A stretch of 64,000 nucleotides of DNA from a virus (taxonomy: Duplodnaviria > Heunggongvirae > Uroviricota > Caudoviricetes): positions 10,565 to 74,564 of the IMG/VR virus record IMGVR_UViG_2737471844_000002. One strand, given 5' to 3'. The position numbers were made by a program, and so were the translations under genes. A model generated the notes under the pieces. It was given only the letters and a program-made list of their open reading frames with translations, was not told the origin of the DNA and made no database searches. Positions 9,404-64,000 of this stretch are shown here, piece after piece (the stretch's first letter is position 1; every line of letters begins with the position of its first letter).

Positions 9404-11044
9404 GTGGCAAAACGTAAACTTTCCATTAAAGAGTTTCAGAGAAGCCTGCAGGAGTACATCGCCAACCTCCGCCAGACCATCGAGGCTGAATGTCTGGGGT
9501 TCGATGTTAACCCGCAGGCCACACAGGCCCGCCGGGCGGCAGTCTGCGACCCGGTGACGGGCTACGATTATTTTGTCGAAAACTATTTTCCGCACTATGT
9601 CCGCAACCCGGCAAAAAGTGAGCTGCATAAATACCTGTTCAGCCGTCTGCCACAGGTTGTGGCAAGCCCGGACCCGGAGAACGACGCCATCGCCGCGCCC
9701 CGTGGTGAAGCAAAATCCACGCTGGTGACGCAGCTGTTTACCCTGTGGAACATTATCCGGGCCATTAAGCATTACCCGGTCATCATTATGGACAGTATCG
9801 ACCAGGCTTATCCGATGCTGGAAGCCATTAAGGCTGAACTGGAATTTAACCCCCGTTTAAAAAACGATTTCCCGGAAGTGTGCGGACAGGGCCGTGTCTG
9901 GCGTATGGGGACCATCGTCACGGCCAACAATATCAAGGTAACCGTTGCCGGTAGTGGTAAAAAACTGCGTGGTCTGCGCCACGGCCCGTACCGTCCTGAC
10001 CTGGTCATCCTCGACGACATCGAGAACGACGAGATGGTGCGTAACCCGGAGCAGCGCGACAAGCTGCATGACTGGCTCACCAGAACCGTGATGCCGCTGG
10101 GCGAGGCTGGCGGTAAAACCGATATTATTTATATCGGAACCATCCTGCATTACGACTCCGTGCTGTCGCGCACACTCAATAACCCGATGTGGAAAACGGC
10201 CCGCTTTAAGGCGGTCATTCAGTGGCCTGCCAACATGAAGCTGTGGGACGAGTGGGAAGAACTCATCCGCAACAAACAGCCAGAAGCGGCGGAGGCACTT
10301 TATCAGCAGAACGAAGCCGACATGCTCGCCGGGTCGGTGGTGTCATGGGCGGCGCGCCCACTGCTGGCGCTGATGAAAATCCGTGTCCGTGACGGTCACG
10401 ACACCTTTGATTCTGAATACCAGAACGACCCGGTCAGCGGTGAAGATGCGCTGTTTGCGGGCTGCATTAAGTTCTGGGTTAACCGTCTTGATGAATGGGT
10501 GTTTTATGGTGCTGTTGACCCCAGTCTCGGGAAGAAGAATAAAAACCGCGACCCGTCGGCCATTCTCGTGGGGGGCTTTAACCGTTTTACCGGCATTCTG
10601 GATGTGGTTGAAGCCGATATCCGCCGACGTCTGCCAAACAAACTTATCGAAGACGTGATTAAGTATCAGCGGGAATACCACTGTCTGTGCTGGTCGTTTG
10701 AGTCCGTCCAGTTTCAGGAGTTTCTGCGTACCGTGCTGGTTGAGCGTTCGGCGGCGCTGGGCGTGCCGGTTCCGGCGCTGCCGGTCATCCCGCTGGAGGA
10801 TAAGGCGCTGCGCATTGAGTCCCTTCAGCCGCATATGGCCAACGGCCTGATTCGTATCAGCCACACACATCAGACGCTGATTGACCAGCTGCGCCACTAC
10901 CCCAAAGCCGACCACGATGATGGCCCGGACTGTCTGCACATGCTGTGGACGCTGGCGGTATCGCGCAGCGCAAAATTTCAGATTCACACCCCACGCAGCA
11001 CCGGGCGTGACCGTGGCGGGCGTTTTGGTTCAGGAGGATGGTAA
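9404..11044 (+). CDS. terminase large subunit (Mu gp28-like)
   Basis: Large ORF; GTG 9404 chosen because it follows the MTase stop (the track ATG at 9347 overlaps the MTase); Mu-type terminase sequence character. Confidence 0.8.
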   Translation: MAKRKLSIKEFQRSLQEYIANLRQTIEAECLGFDVNPQATQARRAAVCDPVTGYDYFVENYFPHYVRNPAKSELHKYLFSRLPQVVASPDPENDAIAAPRGEAKSTLVTQLFTLWNIIRAIKHYPVIIMDSIDQAYPMLEAIKAELEFNPRLKNDFPEVCGQGRVWRMGTIVTANNIKVTVAGSGKKLRGLRHGPYRPDLVILDDIENDEMVRNPEQRDKLHDWLTRTVMPLGEAGGKTDIIYIGTILHYDSVLSRTLNNPMWKTARFKAVIQWPANMKLWDEWEELIRNKQPEAAEALYQQNEADMLAGSVVSWAARPLLALMKIRVRDGHDTFDSEYQNDPVSGEDALFAGCIKFWVNRLDEWVFYGAVDPSLGKKNKNRDPSAILVGGFNRFTGILDVVEADIRRRLPNKLIEDVIKYQREYHCLCWSFESVQFQEFLRTVLVERSAALGVPVPALPVIPLEDKALRIESLQPHMANGLIRISHTHQTLIDQLRHYPKADHDDGPDCLHMLWTLAVSRSAKFQIHTPRSTGRDRGGRFGSGGW

Positions 11045-28501: not shown

Positions 28502-29430
28502 TGCAGAATTTAATTCCTCCGGTGAATACGCCGGATCAATTGTTTCACGATGGTGACCCCACTCAGGGCATTGAGGGCACTATTGTTTATGCTGAACACA
28601 TGAATAATCAGCAGGGAGCCATTCGTGACCTGCAACAGGAAATTATTAATGTGCTCCGTGCGGCTGATATATCACCGGACCCGAAGAAACAAAATCAACT
28701 GCTTGATGCTATATCGCAATATGTCGGGAAAAAAGTTCCTGACGCATCATTAACGAAGAAGGGCATCGTTCAGCTCAGTAGCGCAACAGACAGTGATTCA
28801 GAAACGGAAGCAGCCACACCAAAGGCAGTAAAATCACTGGCGGAAAAAATAACAGAATTGCAGGGAGTGGCTTTACCGGTAGGTACCCCAATACCGTGGC
28901 CGTCTGATTCAGTGCCACCCGGCTATGCCTTAATGCAGGGGCAGAGCTTTGATAAAGGCTCTTACCCTAAACTTGCAGCTGCCTACCCATCCGGGATTAT
29001 CCCGGATATGCGGGGCTGGACAATTAAGGGTAAGCCTGCCAGTGGTCGTGCTGTATTGTCTCAGGAGCAGGACGGCATTAAATCACACGCCCACAGTGCC
29101 AGTGCATCCAGTACGGATTTGGGGACGAAAACCACATCGTCGTTTGACTACGGAACTAAATCAACAAATAACACAGGTGGTCATAATCACGGTGTTGGTG
29201 AAAATGTTTCTGTCAGTGCCGGCAGTGGCAAAACAGTAAATATGAGTACCGGCACCGTAAATCTTTACACCAAATCTGCTGGCGCTCATGCGCACACTGT
29301 CGGCATTGGTGCTCATGTGCACACTGTTGCTATTGGTTCACACGGACACACCGTCACTGTTAACGCTACTGGTAACGCAGAAAACACCGTCAAAAACATC
29401 GCATTTAACTATATTGTGAGGCTTGCATAA
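28501..29430 (+). CDS. tail fibre protein
   Basis: 309-aa ORF; C-terminal half is near-identical to the C-terminus of the P2-like H protein at 51456-53588, including His-x-His repeats and the [18 protein letters not shown] end. Confidence 0.7.
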
Positions 29431-36457: not shown

Positions 36458-37540
36458 ATGGTAAACGTGAGGGAGGATGAACTTTTCAAACTCATCGAGC
36501 AAGGCATCAAAGGCAACGCAAATGCATTTACACTCCTATGCAGAAAGATGATTAACAACATCCGTAAAAATGATGAGGCTTTAGCTTCTAAGCTGGCTTC
36601 GTTAGTTGCTGAGGGAACAGTATTACGTGGGGCATCTAGTAAGGCTCCTATGCCTGTGGATGGAGACTCCAGACGAAACCTTTTGCAGGAAACATCTGTC
36701 AACGCAATTGTTGAAGAACCTGTATGGAATACGGATATCTCAAAGAAGCTGGAGTCAATTGTTAACGAAAGAGAGAATGCGGTTTCTTTGTTCAAAGCTG
36801 GTCTTGAACCTGTGAAGACGGTTTTACTTTCTGGCCCGCCAGGCGTAGGCAAAACAATGTCCGCACATTGGCTTGCTGCAAAGTTAAATTTACCTCTTTT
36901 AACATTGGATCTCTCATCTGTAATGAGTTCTCTTTTGGGAAAAACAGGTAATAATATTAAATCCGTTATGGATTATGCCAAAGAGAAACCATGTGTCCTT
37001 TTGCTTGATGAATTTGATGCTGTTGCAAAAAGACGTGATGATGACAGGGACGTTGGAGAATTAAAACGTTTAGTTACTGTACTCCTACAGACCATAGATG
37101 AGTGGCCAGCGACCTCGCTTCTTGTTGCTGCGACTAATCACCCTGATATCTTAGATCCGGCTGTTTGGCGTCGATTTGAGCACATCCTTAAATTTAATAT
37201 GCCATCAGTAGAACTGATAGATAGATATTTAGTCAATCATAATATTGAACCTGAACTATCTAAAAAACTTGCACCATTATTAGATGGCATGTCCTTTGCC
37301 ATCATTAACCGTATTTTGAATTTCTCCAAAAAGAATGAGGTACTTAGAAATATTCCATTTGAAAGCTCATTAATAGAAGCCGTAATTACGGAGAGGGTTT
37401 CATTGGATGAGTTTAGCGATAATGATCTCAATATAATTAAATATCATTTTGACGGTTTTTCAAATAGGAAGATAGCTGAATTAGTTGGTGTTTCACATCC
37501 AACAATCGCGAATAAATTACAAAAGTGGGGGATTAAATGA
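36458..37540 (+). CDS. AAA+ ATPase with C-terminal HTH domain
   Basis: 360-aa ORF; Walker A GPPGVGKT, Walker B LLLDEFD, sensor/Arg-finger region ATNHPDILDPAVWRRFE; C-terminal GFSNRKIAELVGVSHPTIANKLQKWG helix-turn-helix; AT-rich. Confidence 0.8.
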   Translation: MVNVREDELFKLIEQGIKGNANAFTLLCRKMINNIRKNDEALASKLASLVAEGTVLRGASSKAPMPVDGDSRRNLLQETSVNAIVEEPVWNTDISKKLESIVNERENAVSLFKAGLEPVKTVLLSGPPGVGKTMSAHWLAAKLNLPLLTLDLSSVMSSLLGKTGNNIKSVMDYAKEKPCVLLLDEFDAVAKRRDDDRDVGELKRLVTVLLQTIDEWPATSLLVAATNHPDILDPAVWRRFEHILKFNMPSVELIDRYLVNHNIEPELSKKLAPLLDGMSFAIINRILNFSKKNEVLRNIPFESSLIEAVITERVSLDEFSDNDLNIIKYHFDGFSNRKIAELVGVSHPTIANKLQKWGIK

Positions 37541-39741
37541 TGGAAAGGAACTTACTTTTAGGTAACGGTCATGTTCTGACAAAAAAGGAACCTTTGCCTA
37601 AAGGAAGGGATGGTAAGCGCTATCCCTATACTCTTGAAGAAGTAAGGGAGCATTTAAACCCAGAGATTGATACTTTACTCTCACGCTTTCGCAGTTTGGA
37701 TGATGCGGCTAAGCCAAGGGGGGAGAGTGTATTCAATTTAACTTTACACCCAGCGTTTTTGGGTAAAAGCTACTTTCCGGAAGGATTGCTTAGAGCGACA
37801 GGTTTACGGGATGTCGGTAGCCGTCAGGTAATCATTCGCCCACGGAAAGCGGCACGTCAGTGCGATCAGAATAAGGACTTAGTAACGGCGCAACTGTTTG
37901 TTAGCGGTGATGATGATGCCGTTATAAGATTTAAGGAAATTTTAAATTCCCCTACAGCTCCGAAGGGCGTACAAAAGGATTTGATCGAAATTGAAAGTGT
38001 TAGCTTTTTTGAAGGAAAAGAGAGAGCACGCAATTTTGAGCATGCGAAAAGTGATTTGATAAAATTTGAAGTGGTTCTTCATGCTGGGGTTGAAGACGAT
38101 GATATCGTTAAAGCCTATATTAGCTATGCGGCACAATATGATGTCTCTGTTGATTACAAAAGTAGAATCCAAGTTGGTGGGCTGACTTTCATCGTTGCAC
38201 ACGCGCGACCTGAAGATATGAAAAAAACACTCGATTTTTCATTAATCCGCGTTGTGCGGCCGATGCCGTCTCTCAGGTGTACTCAGCCGAACATTGTCAG
38301 AAAGTTATCTAATATAGTTACACCGGAGCTCCCTAATTCTAAAGCTGTTCTTGAATCCGAACGTATTGCCATTTTTGATGGTGGCTTGGGGACAGCTGAC
38401 TTGAGTAATTGGGTTACGGAATACGTGTATCCAGACACCAAAGAAACAAGCGGATTATTATTGCAGCACGGTAATGAAGTGACATCCACTTTCTTATTCG
38501 GACGTGTCGAGGAAAATGCACCTTCTTTTAAAAGACCGTTTATGAATGTAGATCATTATAGAGTTCTTTCACCGACATCAGGTGACAATGGCAATTGGGA
38601 TTTATTTGATGTCCTTAAGAAAATACAGTCCGTTCTTGATAGTGGTGACTATAAGTTCGCTAATCTAAGTATTGGTCCTCATCTTCCAATTGGTGATGAT
38701 GAGGTTCATGTATGGACTGCTGTTTTAGACCAAATCTGTGCTAAGCATGGGATATTACTTACTGTTGCTGTTGGGAATGATGGCAATGAGGACGGTGATG
38801 CAGCGAGAATACAACCTCCTTCCGATATGGTAAACGCGCTAGCGATTGGTGCTGCTGATCGTAGCGGTGAAAAATGGGGGCGGGCACCATATAGCTGTAT
38901 TGGGCCAGGCAGAAGCCCCGGATTCGTTAAACCTGATGGTGTTATTTTTGGTGGAAGCGACGACGAGCCTTTTTACACTTACAACCCTCTGCTTGGTTCT
39001 ATAGTTGGAGTTCAAGGAACCAGTTATGCCTCTCCATTAGCATTGAGAACGGCCGCTGGAGTTGCGGCTCTATCAGGAACTCCATTGAACACCATTGCAT
39101 TGAAAGCGTTGCTTGTTCATCATGCTGAAACATCAAGAAAATATTCGCGTGAACATATCGGTTGGGGACGGTTTAGTGAGGATCCTAACGTTTTAATCGA
39201 TTGTCCAAATGATACTGCTACAGTAATTTACTATGGTTCATTAGCAAAAAATAAATATTTAAGGGCACCGATCCCATTCCCTGATGTTCCCTTTGACGAA
39301 GCATTTGAGCTTACCGCTACTTTATGCATTCAAACCCCAGTAGATCCTGAACATTCAGTAAACTATACAAGGGCCGGTATGCAGGTAACTTTCCGCCCAA
39401 GATTCGGCCTTGACGATACCGATACAGATGATTTCTTTGGTCAAAAAAGCCAGTATAAGACTGAAAGGGAGTGTAGGAGTGAAGGTCATAAATGGGAAAC
39501 TTGTTTGCACAGAAGCAAAAAGTTCAGTGCTGATACATTATTAAGCGATCCAGTTTTTGATATACGGTATCATGCCCGAGATTCTTCGCGCCATGTTAAG
39601 GGAGTTTCAGCCCCTGATATGCAATATGCGATGGTAATAAGCGTAAGGGTAAAAGACTTTGATTTATATAATGTTATTCGCCAGCGATATACAATTCTGA
39701 ATCCTATTCAACTGCGCACACAAATTTCTCTCGACACGTAA
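37537..39741 (+). CDS. S8 subtilisin-like serine protease with N- and C-terminal extensions
   Basis: 734-aa ORF with ATGA overlap to the ATPase gene; catalytic triad motifs IAIFDGGLG (Asp codon 38377-38379), LQHGNEV (His codon 38467-38469), GTSYASP (Ser codon 39022-39024) in canonical D-H-S order and spacing. Confidence 0.8.
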   Translation: MMERNLLLGNGHVLTKKEPLPKGRDGKRYPYTLEEVREHLNPEIDTLLSRFRSLDDAAKPRGESVFNLTLHPAFLGKSYFPEGLLRATGLRDVGSRQVIIRPRKAARQCDQNKDLVTAQLFVSGDDDAVIRFKEILNSPTAPKGVQKDLIEIESVSFFEGKERARNFEHAKSDLIKFEVVLHAGVEDDDIVKAYISYAAQYDVSVDYKSRIQVGGLTFIVAHARPEDMKKTLDFSLIRVVRPMPSLRCTQPNIVRKLSNIVTPELPNSKAVLESERIAIFDGGLGTADLSNWVTEYVYPDTKETSGLLLQHGNEVTSTFLFGRVEENAPSFKRPFMNVDHYRVLSPTSGDNGNWDLFDVLKKIQSVLDSGDYKFANLSIGPHLPIGDDEVHVWTAVLDQICAKHGILLTVAVGNDGNEDGDAARIQPPSDMVNALAIGAADRSGEKWGRAPYSCIGPGRSPGFVKPDGVIFGGSDDEPFYTYNPLLGSIVGVQGTSYASPLALRTAAGVAALSGTPLNTIALKALLVHHAETSRKYSREHIGWGRFSEDPNVLIDCPNDTATVIYYGSLAKNKYLRAPIPFPDVPFDEAFELTATLCIQTPVDPEHSVNYTRAGMQVTFRPRFGLDDTDTDDFFGQKSQYKTERECRSEGHKWETCLHRSKKFSADTLLSDPVFDIRYHARDSSRHVKGVSAPDMQYAMVISVRVKDFDLYNVIRQRYTILNPIQLRTQISLDT

Positions 39742-54251: not shown

Positions 54252-55460
54252 ATGTGTGATTTGGAATTTCAGGGTACCATTATGAATGTTATTTCATCGT
54301 TAAAACAGCTTAACAGACAGCGAAATATTAAAACAAAAAAGATAAAGACGAAGGCCAGACTGGCATTTCTAAAAATGCGATACAGAAGGAAAACATCATT
54401 ACAGCCGGATAGTTATAAAACAGTGTGCATTTTCATGCACATGCAAGCCATTGGTGACGGCATCGTTACCTCAGGGTTTATTAAACAACTTCAAAAATCC
54501 GGTATGGTGGTATATGTGATAGCACCTTCAAGAGTATCATTCCTCTTTACTGACATTGTTGGCGTGGATGCCTTTATATCTTACGAGAAAAATAAATTTA
54601 ACGAACTAAAAGCAAAGATAAAAAAACTGAATGTAGATCTTGTTGTTGACTTCTCAAATTTTGATAACACAGCGATAACCAGATTGCAAACACTACATTT
54701 ACTTAGACCTAAACACTCTATCTGTTTTAATCATCCTGCCGTAACTATTTTTGATACAAATATAATCGATAATCGTTCCATTCACACATCTGAAAGAATG
54801 AAAAAAGTTTTATCTTTACTAAAGATAAAAAATAATAATTATGCTGCAGCGCTTAATTTTGACAACAAAATATATGAACCAGCAAATATTGTTGCAAATG
54901 AATTCAGGAAAAAAAACAAAAAATTAGTTATATTTAACCCTTATGGCTCTCAGAATAGCAGAACCTTATCTGATGAACAGATAAAAAAAGTACTAGCTTA
55001 CCTTAATAACCTTAAGGGATATCACACAATAGTTTTTAATATGGGAAAACAGATTAATCACAATGGATTGGATAATGTGTCTCTATCTCCATTTTCTGAT
55101 GCCGGATGTTCATTTGCATTGGTTCGCCATGCTGATTTTGTTATAACTGTAGATACTGCCATTGTACATTTAGCCAGTGCATTAAACATTAGACAATACT
55201 GTATATATAATAACAGAATGCATGAAGGAAAATTCGAAAATAATATTGTGTGGGGGCCAAACAGCAAATTAGCGACTCAACTCACCACATCCGAACATCT
55301 AAGGTCTGAAGGGGGCGACGATATGCATAAATTCGACATAATGATCTTAATTAATGCTATCAAACAAGATTTGACAAACGATATACCGAATTACCACTCG
55401 GATTTAGGTTGTAAAAATAGTTCCAGAAACCCAGAATTAGAAAGTAGCAATTCTTTATAA
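54252..55460 (+). CDS. GT9-like glycosyltransferase (heptosyltransferase fold), moron
   Basis: Track ORF begins at TTG 54222; ATG 54252 or 54282 more likely; strongly AT-rich; C-terminal VDTAIVHLASALN and central FNPYGSQNSRTL motifs resemble WaaC/WaaF-type LPS heptosyltransferases. Confidence 0.55.
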   Translation: MCDLEFQGTIMNVISSLKQLNRQRNIKTKKIKTKARLAFLKMRYRRKTSLQPDSYKTVCIFMHMQAIGDGIVTSGFIKQLQKSGMVVYVIAPSRVSFLFTDIVGVDAFISYEKNKFNELKAKIKKLNVDLVVDFSNFDNTAITRLQTLHLLRPKHSICFNHPAVTIFDTNIIDNRSIHTSERMKKVLSLLKIKNNNYAAALNFDNKIYEPANIVANEFRKKNKKLVIFNPYGSQNSRTLSDEQIKKVLAYLNNLKGYHTIVFNMGKQINHNGLDNVSLSPFSDAGCSFALVRHADFVITVDTAIVHLASALNIRQYCIYNNRMHEGKFENNIVWGPNSKLATQLTTSEHLRSEGGDDMHKFDIMILINAIKQDLTNDIPNYHSDLGCKNSSRNPELESSNSL

Positions 55461-55556
55461 AGTAGAAACCTCAACAGTTTTATCAGGACCTACGATATAT
55501 TATATAACAACAAGCCGCCCATTACCCAATATGAAGGTATTGGCGGCAATGTAAAA

Positions 55557-59948: not shown

Positions 59949-61132
59949 CAGGCACCTCCCAGCACCGCAAATGCGGGACCAAAGAATTCATCAGTAAACG
60001 ACTGGTAAAGCTCCATGTCTTCCAGCGGGGGAACAGGCGTATATTTGTAGCGAATACGCACGCGCCCCTGACGTAAATTCGTGGTGCCGTTATCCACCAC
60101 GTCATACCAGCACGACGCCCCAATCAGTTTCCCGGCAGTAACCAGTGAATCCAGTTTTGCCCTGATGGCACTGATAACATCTTTCACGTTCGCAGGCGTC
60201 AGTGGACTGTCGATGGTTTCAAACTGCGCTTCCGCAATTGAATCAGCCAGCACCTGTGCGGTTCGGGTATACACCTCAAAGATGTAGGCGTTCGTTTCCG
60301 GTGTGCGGTTGCCCCAGAAGCGGAACCCGTTGCGACGAATAATGGTCGTGATTTCTTTGTTGTTGAGGCTGTTGGCATCACTGTCTTCGGCCTGCAACGA
60401 CCAGAACACATGCCTGGACATCCCCAGCACATTTTTAACCGGAACGTTGGACAGCGATTTGTGCCAGCCCTGCTCATGGTCAATGTACGCACGAAGGCCG
60501 CACGCATAGGCAGGCGCGGGGAACGTTTCGTTTTTGCCACTTTTCGGGTTGTAGGCGATGAAGTCCGGCCATAAGAGCATCACCTCACGTTCGTTGAATT
60601 TCTGGCGGTAGGTAATCGCCTCAGCCATCGTGTTACAGCCGTGACATGAGGCATACACAAACGCGCGCAGTTTACCCGCAATCACGCACAGGGATTTTGT
60701 TACCGCCTCCGTGTCCAGCTCCGGCGCGGCCAGAATACGCGGACGGTATCCGATGCTTTCATCCTGCTCTGCAACAAGCAGCGCATACATCCCCGTATAG
60801 CTGCCGTCAGATTCAGAACCACCGATAACCAGTTGATCCTGCGTTTTTCCGTCTTCTTCTTTGTGTTCAGCCACGCGAACGACGATCACCTTTGTGCTCA
60901 CCTGGTCTGCGATGGCCTTAAGCGCACGATAAAGCGTCCCCGTTGTTCCGCATTTTCCCAGCACGTCATTGACGCGGGTCAGCAGTGTGGGCTTGTTCAG
61001 CGGGAACAGCTCCGCATCCGCATCATCCGCCGTTGCCACGATACCGATAACACTGGAATCAACATCATTAATCGCTGTTACCAGGTCGGTACTTTCCGTA
61101 ACACGGGCACCATGAAAACGAGTTTCACTCAT
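59948..61132 (-). CDS. FI: tail sheath protein gpFI
   Basis: 394-aa ORF; strong resemblance to P2 FI (KLRAF.Y.S..GC.T..E...YRQ.F..RE.M..WPDF, GWHK.LSNV, LIRR.GFRFWGNRT). Confidence 0.85.
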   Translation of the reverse strand: MSETRFHGARVTESTDLVTAINDVDSSVIGIVATADDADAELFPLNKPTLLTRVNDVLGKCGTTGTLYRALKAIADQVSTKVIVVRVAEHKEEDGKTQDQLVIGGSESDGSYTGMYALLVAEQDESIGYRPRILAAPELDTEAVTKSLCVIAGKLRAFVYASCHGCNTMAEAITYRQKFNEREVMLLWPDFIAYNPKSGKNETFPAPAYACGLRAYIDHEQGWHKSLSNVPVKNVLGMSRHVFWSLQAEDSDANSLNNKEITTIIRRNGFRFWGNRTPETNAYIFEVYTRTAQVLADSIAEAQFETIDSPLTPANVKDVISAIRAKLDSLVTAGKLIGASCWYDVVDNGTTNLRQGRVRIRYKYTPVPPLEDMELYQSFTDEFFGPAFAVLGGA

Positions 61133-61289
61133 AGCTTCAGCCCCTTGTATCCGTTAAATGATTCGGCAACAATCATCACCCACCACGCGCGTAATCTCAC
61201 CCCTGCGCCATTCTCCCGCCACGGCGACAACAAAAAGCAGTAACCCCCTCCGCACGCACATGCGACCATGCCGCACAGGGAGGGAACAG

Positions 61290-62399
61290 ATGACCGACAC
61301 CACCATGCAATTGCTCAGTCAGGGCACAGACCCCGTGAAAATGCCGGATTTTGATATTCTCGCGGAGGGTAAAACGCTGTCAGGCGTGGCAGAGCGCCTG
61401 ATGAGCCTGTCACTGACCGACAACCGGGGATTTGAGGCGGACCAGCTCACCATCACGCTGGATGATGCGGATGGTCAGTTGCAGCTACCGCCACGGGGCG
61501 CGCGCCTGACGGTTCTCATTGGCTGGAAGGGAGAACCGCTGACAGAAAAAGGCACTTACATTGTTGATGAAATCGCTCACGAAGGACCGCCGGACAGGCT
61601 GACTGTTTCAGCCAGAAGCGCAGATTTTCGGGATGAATTTAACGTTAAACGTGAGGTGTCCTGGCATGATGTGACCGTTGAGAGTGTGGTATCCGCCATC
61701 GCTCATCGGTATGGTCTGAAACCGCAAATCAGCGAAATGCTGATGGATATCGAAATCGACCACGCCGACCAGACCGAAGAAAGCGACATGTCCTTTCTTA
61801 CGCGCATGGCGGAAATGCTGGGCGCAATCACCACCGTAAAAAGCGGCAATCTGTTATTCATCATGCCAGGTGGTGGCGTGAACGCACAGGGCCAGCCGTT
61901 GCCCTCGTTCGCCATTACACGCAGCAGCGGCGATCGCCATCAGTTCCGTATTGCTGACCGCGAGGCGTATACGGGGGTACGCGCCTACTGGCTTGATCTT
62001 AATTACGGGAAAAAGAAAAAAGTCAGCGTGAAACGCCGCAAACCGCCAAAACCCAAAAAGGAGAAAAGCAGCAGCCGTGAAGGTGATTATATGGAAGGCG
62101 CGGAAGGCAATGTGTTTGTGTTACGCAAGACTTATCAGAACGAGCAGGCAGCAAGACGCGCAGCGGCGGCAAAGTGGCAGCAACTACAACGCGGAGCCGC
62201 ATCATTCTCCATCACGCTGGCACGTGGACGAGCAGAACTCTACCCCGAAATGCATGGCACGGTAACAGGATTTAAAAGCGAGATTGATAATCAGGACTGG
62301 ATTATTGCAAAAGCCGAGCACACCATTGATAACAGTGGCTTTACCACGCAGCTTGAGCTTGAAGCCAAAATCCCGGAATGGATAGCAGAAACAGAGTAA
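61290..62399 (+). CDS. D: tail protein gpD
   Basis: ATG 61290 preceded by cagggaggg SD (track start 61158 is probably too far upstream); P2 gpD-like; on the opposite strand to FI-U. Confidence 0.75.
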   Translation: MTDTTMQLLSQGTDPVKMPDFDILAEGKTLSGVAERLMSLSLTDNRGFEADQLTITLDDADGQLQLPPRGARLTVLIGWKGEPLTEKGTYIVDEIAHEGPPDRLTVSARSADFRDEFNVKREVSWHDVTVESVVSAIAHRYGLKPQISEMLMDIEIDHADQTEESDMSFLTRMAEMLGAITTVKSGNLLFIMPGGGVNAQGQPLPSFAITRSSGDRHQFRIADREAYTGVRAYWLDLNYGKKKKVSVKRRKPPKPKKEKSSSREGDYMEGAEGNVFVLRKTYQNEQAARRAAAAKWQQLQRGAASFSITLARGRAELYPEMHGTVTGFKSEIDNQDWIIAKAEHTIDNSGFTTQLELEAKIPEWIAETE

Positions 62400-62513
62400 A
62401 CAACTTAGATGCATTAGCCCTGACATTTGCTAACGCGCTTACAGCAAGAATCATAACCAATCTGACAGCCTACCCGGTGTCAAAATCAGAAGAGCCTTAC
62501 ATTAGAATATGTT

Positions 62514-62532
62514 AATTTGTAGCAAACAAATT
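62514..62532. promoter_or_regulatory. inverted repeat (candidate operator) upstream of moron gene
   Basis: aatttgt agcaa acaaatt, 7-bp arms, within an AT-rich promoter-like region. Confidence 0.3.
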
Positions 62533-62593
62533 TACACACAAATGATTACTGCTGAAATAGCCCCCATAAATACCATGTCAAAGGATCCATGTT

Positions 62594-63259
62594 ATGAATA
62601 TGCAAATTTTTATCGCACCAGCAGCCACAGTTGCTGCAGTCTGCCTTGCTGCATATTTTGCTTTACGAAATGAACGTAAAAAGAAAGCACTTGAGATTAG
62701 AACAACTCAACTAGATCGAATATCAGAGCTAGTAAACCGAGCATCTACCAATTTGATGCAATATACAGGTACTCTTGCCTCTATACTGGAAGCGCACGCC
62801 AAAGATAATTATCTACCGAACAAAAAATTTGACATTAATGTAATTAGCAAATGGAAAGATTGCCTCGATGAGAGTGAGGTCTGGGCGATTGATAGACAGC
62901 AACTAAGAACATGTCAGCACAGTCTGGAGTTTCATCGTGAAAAAGAATGGGCTGAATGGAAAAAAATAATTCCACCATTACTTGATAAAATTGACCAATT
63001 TTTTCTCATATCTAAGCCAGGGCAACCTGTTACGTTTATAAATGGCCAAAACAAAACAGCTGATGAACTACTTGTTTTCTCAAGATATTTGAGAAAACAA
63101 ACAGCAGAAATTGAATCAGTACGTCAGCTGTTACTTTCTCAAATGAGAGAGGAATTCATCGAGTTAACTAGCTTTGAACCTGTCACAATGTTTAGCTTAT
63201 TTAAATCAATAAAGAAAAATGTCATGCAATTTTTCTGTATCAGTGCTCTTAAAAATTGA
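62594..63259 (+). CDS. membrane-anchored protein of unknown function (moron between D and ogr)
   Basis: 221-aa ORF; single N-terminal TM helix (IFIAPAATVAAVCLAAYFAL); strongly AT-rich; own terminator downstream. Confidence 0.5.
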   Translation: MNMQIFIAPAATVAAVCLAAYFALRNERKKKALEIRTTQLDRISELVNRASTNLMQYTGTLASILEAHAKDNYLPNKKFDINVISKWKDCLDESEVWAIDRQQLRTCQHSLEFHREKEWAEWKKIIPPLLDKIDQFFLISKPGQPVTFINGQNKTADELLVFSRYLRKQTAEIESVRQLLLSQMREEFIELTSFEPVTMFSLFKSIKKNVMQFFCISALKN

Positions 63260-63274
63260 CGCTCTGTTGCAAGC

Positions 63275-63297
63275 AACCCCAGTGTTAAACTGGGGTT
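63275..63297 (+). terminator. terminator-like hairpin
   Basis: aaccccagt gttaa actggggtt (9-bp stem) followed by attcttgc; flanked by an extra gcaag/cttgc pair. Confidence 0.5.
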
Positions 63298-63408
63298 ATT
63301 CTTGCTAAGAGACCTTTCTACGGCATCAGTAAACAAAACGAACTATCAGTTGGAGTCTGAGCAAGTTCAGCCTAAACTAGCGACAGCACTACGTTAAGGG
63401 AGGTCGCT

Positions 63409-63669
63409 ATGTTCCGTTGTCCGCTTTGTGGCGCATCTGCCCGTATCCGCACCAGTCGTCCGGAAAATGATTCAAACACCGTGCGGCAAAAGTATTACCA
63501 GTGTAACAACCTGGAATGCGGCGTATGCTTCTCAACACTGGAAGCTTTCCATAAATTCACATCGAAACACGCCTCCGGCATCCACTCTTCAGAAGATATC
63601 CCGTGGCATGAGCTGCCAGCTTCACACAGGGGAAACAATCAGATGAGCTTGCCTTTACCTCAGAATTAA
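63409..63669 (+). CDS. ogr: Ogr/Delta-family zinc-finger late transcription activator
   Basis: 86-aa ORF starting MFRCPLCG...RTSR...YYQCNNLECG; matches the Ogr C-x2-C ... C-x4-C zinc finger. Confidence 0.75.
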   Translation: MFRCPLCGASARIRTSRPENDSNTVRQKYYQCNNLECGVCFSTLEAFHKFTSKHASGIHSSEDIPWHELPASHRGNNQMSLPLPQN

Positions 63670-63859
63670 CAGGCAGAATTGCCGGAGTAACAAAAAAGCG
63701 ATAGATTACGCGCGGGTGCCTTTCGGCTGATGGTCGGAGGGAATACCCGAAGGCCAGATGTGGAAAGGCCCCGGAAAACATCTCTGTTTAACCGAGGCCC
63801 TAACCGCATTACCTTGACAAGTGAAAGGTTAGCGCCTCTCCGGAAAAGGAGCAAGTGCT

Positions 63860-64000
63860 ATGTCGCAAAAATCGCTTACGGCCATCACGTTCTGCGTGAC
63901 GGCAATCCTCATCATCTGGATGTTGCACGGTTCGCTGTGTGAAATACGGATGAGCTTCTGGGGAGCGGAGTTTGCGGCGTTCTTACAGTGTAAGCAGTAA
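63860..64000 (+). CDS. Hok/Gef-family type I toxin-like small membrane protein
   Basis: 46-codon ORF (below the ORF-track cutoff) with aaaaggag SD; hydrophobic helix then SLCEIR...EFAAFLQCKQ, resembling the Hok family (cf. HokA SLCELH...ELAAFLACK); overlapped by track ORF 63730-63942 in another frame (mok-like). Confidence 0.5.
   Translation: MSQKSLTAITFCVTAILIIWMLHGSLCEIRMSFWGAEFAAFLQCKQ

Follow-up and report, generated by a model that had tools for sequence, protein, structure and literature searches.

A variable site between genes D and ogr of a P2-like Escherichia coli prophage holds a mobile single-gene cassette for a predicted membrane-anchored protein, a candidate for phage defence

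The stretch of viral DNA analysed here (hereafter the window; 64,000 nucleotides, positions 10,565 to 74,564 of IMG/VR record IMGVR_UViG_2737471844_000002) ends in a P2-like prophage, in which the conserved genes D and ogr are separated by an AT-rich cassette with one open reading frame (ORF) for a protein of 221 amino acids. Comparison with related prophages showed that the interval between D and ogr is a variable site, and that the 221-aa gene is dispensable for the phage. The cassette is almost certainly a piece of mobile, dispensable prophage cargo, or 'moron'. Its product can be regarded as an uncharacterised hotspot cargo and as a candidate single-gene defence protein. The site is composed of the following features.

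61290 to 62399, plus strand: D, tail/baseplate hub gene and left conserved flank (Pfam Phage_GPD, E=1.6e-17)
62410 to 63385, plus strand: inserted AT-rich cassette of about 976 bp, delimited by alignment to the empty D-ogr site of UTI89 (GC content 0.345-0.415)
62594 to 63259, plus strand: cargo ORF of 221 aa, RefSeq WP_001057122.1 ('hypothetical protein'), with an AAGGA Shine-Dalgarno sequence 8 nt upstream
63409 to 63669, plus strand: ogr, late-gene activator and right conserved flank (Pfam Ogr_Delta, E=5e-14)

The gap between D and ogr measures 1009 bp in the window, as compared to 81 bp in P2 itself, where the F-operon/ogr terminator lies after ogr, and 42 bp in most relatives of the present prophage (the UTI89 type). 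This bears out two statements of a preliminary description of this DNA, namely that D and ogr are adjacent in P2 and that here they are separated by about 1 kb of AT-rich DNA. The GC content of the gap is also clearly different from that of D (0.47-0.60) and of the region from ogr onward (0.475-0.535). Extra DNA between two normally adjacent genes and a base composition unlike that of the flanking phage genes are both features by which morons in the Hendrix/Juhala sense are recognised. D itself is 96-98% identical across approximately 1450 E. coli genomes. In the alignment to UTI89, the common flanks stop at CAACTTAGA (62401-62409) and restart near TAGCGACAGCAC (about 63378), the junctions of the insert being fuzzy and without a clean target duplication. 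On the right side, only about 30 bp 5' of the ogr ATG are shared with prophages that have an empty site.

To define the occupancy of the site, a query across the empty D-ogr junction was compared with 5426 complete E. coli genomes, of which 1202 gave a match. The junction was contiguous in 720 of these genomes and D and ogr were split in the rest, which means that a contiguous copy is lacking in about 40% of the genomes with the junction. The cassette itself was found in 58 E. coli genomes (50 with at least 99% identity over the 1009-bp query, and eight variants with 90-95% identity), and it is missing from about 95% of the genomes that have the D-ogr junction. Inspection of a sample of the split cases (loci L019-L023, L040 and L041) revealed five other cargo types: a DUF2971 protein belonging to the PADLOC candidate family PDC-S31 (E=5e-27), a DUF3800 protein that is also present, together with an IS5-like element, in the O104:H4 outbreak strain 2011C-3493, a 340-aa protein with a sub-threshold match to HEPN_RiboL-PSP, a ParA-like ATPase, and a 384-aa orphan. 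All five are minus-strand genes and run against D and ogr, unlike the 221-aa gene, which points the same way as these two. No validated anti-phage system was found at D-ogr in this sample, where only PADLOC candidates (PDC-S31 and a weak PDC-M28B) and the sub-threshold HEPN match were detected. The same two genes thus enclose either no cargo or one of at least six single-gene cargos, as is typical of a hotspot. Since most relatives are empty and others carry different cargos at the same place, the gene is dispensable and the site is hotspot-like. The reading of the gene as cargo, which was put forward in the preliminary description along with the suggestion to compare related P2-like prophages, therefore stands, because the gene is not kept in all relatives. 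Disrupted copies of the cassette also exist: it is interrupted by insertion sequence IS1 in two E. coli genomes (NZ_CP021722.1 and NZ_CP020048.1), and in Escherichia phage 520873, where IS100 also splits the sheath gene, it carries a frameshift.

Cargo hotspots of P2-like phages have mainly been described at gpA-gpQ (old/tin) and Z/fun (PMC9122126; PMC9519451). Further described sites are a 'tail protein to CI' hotspot and the coarse classes 'downstream of GpL' and 'att-integrase' (PMC9122126; PMC9519451). A hotspot was defined by Rousset in 2022 as a 1-5 kb high-turnover locus between two conserved phage genes (PMC9122126). The D-ogr interval is not delineated as a hotspot in this literature on P2-like phages, where the coarse classes may subsume it.

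The cargo ORF is the only substantial one in the 1009-bp D-ogr stretch. The gene is real and under purifying selection, the ratio of nonsynonymous to synonymous substitution rates (dN/dS) being 0.24 at a dS of 0.67 against a 73%-identical ortholog from Kluyvera. This ratio climbs to 0.65 between close E. coli variants. A HMMER search of 1.84 billion representatives yielded 23 proteins at E<=0.001, and a profile search of 5.8 billion clusters yielded 34 family clusters, all of which are 'hypothetical' and none of which (0/34) has a Pfam domain. All clusters named by organism are from Enterobacterales, and full-length homologues with 19-40% identity cover two families of this order. A profile search of genome contigs with a narrower alignment returned one locus, and a tblastn search of isolated phage genomes detected only the frameshifted copy in phage 520873. 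Neither the single sequence nor a 17-member alignment gave a credible match in Pfam, PHROGs, PADLOC, NCBIfam or the PDB sequences. In particular, no defence hidden Markov model (HMM) of PADLOC-DB v2.0.0 was significant, the best being REase_II (E=0.023, residues 16-48 only), and for no family member did Pfam or PHROGs give a match to characterised families of superinfection-exclusion, holin or antiholin proteins. The label DUF4760 is attached to one UniRef cluster that represents exactly this protein. This assignment was rejected, because neither the protein nor 16 homologues hit that domain even at E<=10; the sole paper mentioning DUF4760 gives no function. A literature search on WP_001057122 found no paper.

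The preliminary description had attributed a single N-terminal transmembrane (TM) helix to the 221-aa ORF product, and both the ORF and the helix were confirmed. The coding region can be divided into two parts.

62606 to 62728, plus strand: codons 5-45, the single TM helix (residues 5-23) and a juxtamembrane motif LRNExxKKxLEIR, together the most conserved part of the family
62729 to 63256, plus strand: codons 46-221, a predicted cytoplasmic four-helix bundle and a low-confidence C-terminal amphipathic helix (199-220)

The TM segment has a Kyte-Doolittle 19-mer mean of 2.11, the next best segment reaching at most 0.93, and every family member has a single hydrophobic segment, located near the N-terminus. 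Across the family, the charge of the N flank of this segment is 0 to -2 and that of the C flank is +1 to +4 (RNERKKK in the present protein). By the positive-inside rule, these charges point to an N-out/C-in topology, in which a short N-tail would be outside and the rest of the protein would be cytoplasmic. We also considered a secreted protein or a lipoprotein. This was rejected on reading the sequence, since there is no basic n-region, RNERKKK follows right after the hydrophobic core, and no lipobox is present. Moreover, C17 is replaced by W in most homologues and the family has no conserved Cys, which argues against a lipoprotein. An AlphaFold2 model based on 17 sequences (pLDDT, the predicted local distance difference test, 86.1; pTM, the predicted template modelling score, 0.71) has one helix of residues 4-71, in which the TM segment continues without a break as helix 1 of a four-helix bundle of the up-down type. 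Conservation is unevenly distributed, with a mean pairwise identity of 52-53% in residues 1-45 as compared to 21-27% elsewhere. The residues P9, A20, L24, K30, K31, H114 and W122 are invariant, and T12, V16, N26, L33, E34 and F113 are nearly so. Of these, P9, T12, V16, A20 and L24 share one face of the Ala/Thr-rich TM helix, which suggests that this face is a specific helix-helix interface.

Family members were found on very different elements. The Kluyvera copy is located in a cargo island in the nin region of a lambdoid prophage, beside a pore-forming colicin and in anti-orientation to the phage genes, and homologues with 33-36% identity are located between the antiterminator gene Q and the holin gene of other lambdoid prophages (L015-L017). 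Several members are found within 5 kb of known defence systems. One adjoins PD-Lambda-1/SNIPE (E=9e-240) and an integrase, one adjoins Gabija GajA/GajB (E=1e-242 and 2e-211), and one, on a plasmid-like contig, is 0.5 kb from a CBASS cyclase and 2TM effector. Another adjoins a 1292-aa nSTAND NTPase on a contig resembling an integrative and conjugative element (ICE), and yet another lies together with a KAP NTPase in an integrase island next to smpB. Members were also detected on eight PLSDB plasmids, from Pantoea, Erwinia, Winslowiella and Klebsiella; one plasmid copy is 1.1 kb from pifC, which is followed by a KAP NTPase, and in two plasmid contexts Rep genes are directly upstream of the gene. 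Others reside in ICE or IncC-like backbones, including one directly 3' of hipA (L047), with an autotransporter nearby. One homologue directly follows an integrase, and one is in a plain chromosomal islet of Erwinia amid ordinary metabolic genes. Lastly, Salmonella Infantis SARB27 (L024, 4956-5099) has a 47-codon ORF, 35 codons of which (MAFEWKEIITPVATLTAVWLGVRFTLRNELRKKME) are a remnant of the conserved family N-terminus. This remnant is situated just upstream of an Mrr-like nuclease gene, between genes for a HipA toxin and genes tagged STM4491/STM4492 (LT2 locus tags), which we take to be BREX genes. The intact ICE member of L047 has a corresponding position after hipA. The weak REase_II match of the query covers the same N-terminal segment as the Salmonella remnant. 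An all-against-all blastp comparison of the neighbours at 13 loci revealed no conserved partner gene, the only recurring hits being antisense ORFs over the conserved 5' coding region. The lack of a gene common to the neighbourhoods suggests that the protein acts alone or with host components.

Three non-coding features accompany the gene.

62452 to 62593, plus strand: upstream non-coding DNA that travels with the gene, as judged by blastn homology to the Kluyvera copy; presumed regulatory or promoter region
62510 to 62536, no strand assigned: imperfect palindrome TGTTAATTTGT-N5-ACAAATTTACA, overlapping a weak -35-like TTTACA; possible operator
63269 to 63305, plus strand: intrinsic-terminator-like hairpin with its core at 63275-63297, followed by UAUUCUU

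The blastn homology to the lambdoid copy of Kluyvera extends over 62452-63266 with 77% identity, so that it begins 142 bp ahead of the start codon and ends 7 bp after the stop codon, and the best conserved block upstream of the gene is at about 62497-62530. The inverted repeat that had been noted at 62514-62532 is real and longer than described, with 11-nt arms at 62510-62520 and 62526-62536 that are 91% complementary. As RNA it is weak (z = -2.5). Its left arm is conserved in the Kluyvera copy but its right arm is not, and in view of this divergence we rejected a conserved operator as unproven. Late promoters of the Ogr type have the form TGT-N12-ACA; the only candidate upstream of the ORF, a TGT-N13-ACA inside the palindrome, was unconvincing and was likewise discarded. 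The terminator hairpin, which had also been noted at 63275-63297, was borne out: it has a 9-bp stem with five GC pairs and an outer stem at 63269-63305, its folding free energy is -21.9 kcal/mol (z = -6.06), and 0/200 shuffled sequences fold as well. It is outside the DNA that is common with the Kluyvera copy. An Rfam scan of 61000-64000 found nothing within the cassette.

A moron is further expected to have its own promoter and terminator. Here a strong terminator is combined with a 142-bp upstream block that travels with the gene and in which no consensus promoter was found. The view that the cassette is self-contained consequently stands in part only, as the terminator is good but the promoter is merely presumed, and no terminator separates D from the ORF. 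This last feature makes late read-through from D possible. AT-rich cargo of this kind may be silenced by H-NS, as indicated in a preprint (bioRxiv 10.64898/2026.09.05.749240). As for the downstream gene, we observed that TAGAAT straddles the junction of the empty site, the equivalent position in the window reading TAAACT. With a terminator between D and ogr and an altered junction, the cargo may change the transcription of ogr.

What does the protein do? We slightly favour an anti-phage role of some kind, because of the hotspot position, the spread over several types of mobile element and the repeated nearness to unrelated defence systems. An abortive-infection (Abi) or exclusion role, as was proposed in the preliminary description, is plausible on the circumstantial evidence of the neighbourhoods on other mobile elements. 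The best explanation overall, which we advance only tentatively, combines the mobile cassette with a bitopic inner-membrane anti-phage protein that acts in an Abi-like manner. The cassette (62410-63385) is inserted in the variable D-ogr site, and according to this explanation its product would be made for the benefit of the lysogen. The protein would be composed of a very short periplasmic N-tail, one TM helix, the basic juxtamembrane motif and a fast-evolving cytoplasmic four-helix bundle. The variable bundle could sense a component or an effect of an infecting phage, and the conserved TM and juxtamembrane module could be the effector, which would self-associate or engage an inner-membrane partner. 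Membrane integrity or energisation might thereby be compromised, and the infection aborted. This division into a sensor bundle and an effector module is drawn from the conservation pattern. Two observations led us to prefer an Abi-like model, namely the combination of a conserved membrane module with a fast-evolving bundle and the occurrence of the family on plasmids and ICEs as well; an Abi-type membrane mechanism as such is nonetheless rather doubtful.

Several observations weigh against this explanation. A consensus scan found no sigma-70-like site on the plus strand of 62400-62593, so that the promoter-like region formerly described upstream of the ORF was not confirmed. By eye, there is only a weak TTTACA(62531-62536)-N16-TGAAAT(62553-62558), the -35 of which is not kept in Kluyvera. 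Both here and in the copies between Q and the holin gene, the cargo ORF points in the same direction as late genes, and here no terminator stands between it and D. Its main period of expression may therefore be lytic growth and not lysogeny. There is no sequence or fold link to any characterised defence, superinfection-exclusion or Abi protein; the four-helix-bundle fold is generic, and one TM helix would make a minimal effector. In addition, inference from neighbours carries little weight for a gene that travels on mobile elements, since these often harbour defence genes in any case.

The main rival explanation is superinfection exclusion, in which the protein, anchored in the inner membrane, would block the entry of the phage genome by binding a host inner-membrane component or phage ejection proteins used for DNA translocation, either within the plane of the membrane or at its cytoplasmic side, and the cell would survive. 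Single-gene, membrane-anchored exclusion morons are a classic format, exemplified by P22 SieA, T4 Imm and HK97 gp15, and the present gene is likewise a single-gene, membrane-anchored prophage moron. The conserved TM face and juxtamembrane motif would suit the binding of a conserved host membrane protein, and the family member that adjoins PD-Lambda-1/SNIPE also fits with exclusion. However, only 4-8 residues are predicted to be exposed to the periplasm, the exclusion (Sie/Imm) families in Pfam were not matched, and a phage-specific exclusion protein would not usually be expected next to broad innate systems on plasmids, in ICEs and in chromosomal islets, where the family also occurs. We consider exclusion unlikely. 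The same degree of doubt applies to a serious alternative, an accessory gene with a benefit to the element or host that is unrelated to phages, such as tolerance to membrane stress or toxins, maintenance or addiction, or modulation of a membrane process; the defence neighbours would then merely reflect common hotspots. This would agree with the heterogeneous neighbours (the pore-forming colicin, HipA, the autotransporter, plasmid Rep genes and the metabolic genes of Erwinia), and also with the generic helical fold and the missing catalytic motif. It is less easily reconciled with the recurrence of the gene beside at least five different recognised anti-phage systems, with its location in classic prophage moron and defence sites, and with the raised dN/dS between close variants, which is more typical of conflict genes.

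Two other explanations are much weaker. A late-expressed, antiholin-like modulator of lysis or its timing would be compatible with a bitopic membrane protein, with the co-orientation with D in the absence of an intervening terminator, and with the position between Q and the holin gene in three lambdoid loci. On the other hand, about 95% of the genomes with the junction do without the gene, which makes it dispensable, family members are also carried by plasmids, ICEs and islets without lysis genes, the Kluyvera copy is anti-oriented to the phage genes, and the holin and antiholin families were not matched. We thus rejected a lysis gene as very improbable on account of the sporadic distribution and the non-phage contexts. 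Even less credible is a decaying or non-functional hitch-hiking ORF. The disrupted copies, namely those with IS1 in two genomes, the frameshift in phage 520873 and the 35-codon remnant in Salmonella, would be expected in that case, but 50 of the 58 genomes have copies that match the full 1009-bp query with at least 99% identity, the dN/dS of 0.24 holds over a dS of 0.67, and full-length homologues at 19-40% identity have retained invariant residues and a confidently predicted fold.

If the protein indeed protects against phage, it would represent a minimal defence family with one gene, one TM helix and no recognisable enzymatic domain. Such a family would escape PADLOC and other current HMM-based finders as well as Pfam and PHROGs, and it would offer a compact model for the arrest of an infection by a membrane anchor together with a helical sensor. 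If there is no phage phenotype, the gene would be one more orphan moron. D-ogr would also provide a precisely bounded new pair of anchor genes for the mining of cargo in thousands of P2-like prophages, an example being the DUF3800 gene of O104:H4. It is conceivable, though we would not presume it, that the protein founds a hitherto overlooked family of anti-phage proteins that belong to mobile elements of Enterobacterales, act alone and are anchored by a single membrane pass, with a TM/juxtamembrane effector and a diversifying cytoplasmic bundle as sensor, and that D-ogr is a cargo hotspot of P88/P2-like prophages in its own right, not delineated until now, which is filled in up to about 40% of the E. 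coli genomes with the junction.

E. coli O55:H7 CB9615 contains the region with 100% identity, the window being collinear 1:1 with NC_013941.1 from position 2123712. The P2-like prophage spans from approximately 28640 to the end of the window, its insertion point is between btuC and ihfA, and among isolated phages its nearest relative is a member of the P88-like genus Xuanwuvirus. This lineage has the tail genes FI-FII-E-T-U on the minus strand, followed by D, ogr and a hok-type gene, which are read from the plus strand. The annotation of D is inconsistent in the region 61546-62399. RefSeq/PGAP gives an N-truncated 801-nt coding sequence (CDS) of the 'VgrG/Pvc8 family' (61599-62399) in CB9615 and many other genomes, together with a 93-nt pseudo-CDS on the other strand. 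The ORF of 369 codons that begins at 61290 is intact, and the full-length gene is labelled 'late control D' in other genomes. The truncated version looks like an annotation inconsistency rather than biology.

Four other loci of the prophage were recorded. At its right end (63714-64000) there is a hok/sok-type toxin-antitoxin module, with a Hok/Gef ORF at 63860-64000 and an Rfam match to sok at 63714-63873 that scores 48.4 bits, which is under the gathering score of 59 (E=4e-9). This module is kept beside ogr in all related prophages examined. The gpA-gpQ hotspot (36989-38995) encodes, according to the RefSeq annotation, a ParM-like segregation ATPase, a partition/stability protein, a ClpX-type zinc-finger protein and a hypothetical protein, contents that agree with the 'plasmid partitioning' cargo class of Rousset et al. 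A 131-aa hypothetical gene (28642-29037) is located between btuC and the prophage integrase gene, a position that corresponds to att-integrase, a reported minor cargo or defence site of P2. Lastly, a recombinase (DNA invertase) gene (54921-55520 and neighbours) is found amid genes for tail fibres and tail-fibre assembly that are duplicated or alternative and occupy both strands, which is the arrangement expected for an invertible host-range segment.

The D-ogr cargo resembles the old, tin and Z/fun loci of P2 in being small and AT-rich, in its location between conserved P2-type genes, in its high turnover, and in being dispensable and present in a minority of prophages. It differs from these loci in its position and in having no sequence relation to old, tin or the PADLOC models, and any anti-phage activity of its product is putative. 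A small cassette that is shared by unrelated families of temperate phages, here P2-like phages at D-ogr and lambdoid phages at nin or between Q and the holin gene, recalls the sopE moron of Salmonella, which Mirold et al. reportedly described in 2001 as being common to the P2-like SopE-phi and lambdoid phages. The product of sopE, however, is a secreted effector and not a membrane-anchored protein.

With HK97 gp15, P22 SieA and T4 Imm, the protein has in common that it is a small, moron-encoded inner-membrane protein without an enzymatic domain. It is not homologous to them, its bulk is predicted to be cytoplasmic instead of periplasmic or polytopic, and plasmids and ICEs also carry members of its family. 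Membrane effectors are used by Abi systems such as lambda RexB and CBASS with effectors of the 2TM/Cap15 type, and the logic proposed here, in which a conserved membrane effector module would be joined to a variable soluble sensor, is similar to that of lambda RexB and CBASS 2TM. Unlike these, the present protein has one TM helix, no partner sensor gene and no sequence similarity, and membrane damage is purely hypothetical in its case. At the level of the fold alone, the four-helix bundle is reminiscent of the sensors of chemoreceptors and histidine kinases (4HB_MCP, NarX, TorS and the Tsr ligand-binding domain). The protein is distinguished from 4HB_MCP by one TM helix instead of two, by a bundle that is predicted to be cytoplasmic rather than periplasmic, and by the lack of a hit to Pfam 4HB_MCP.

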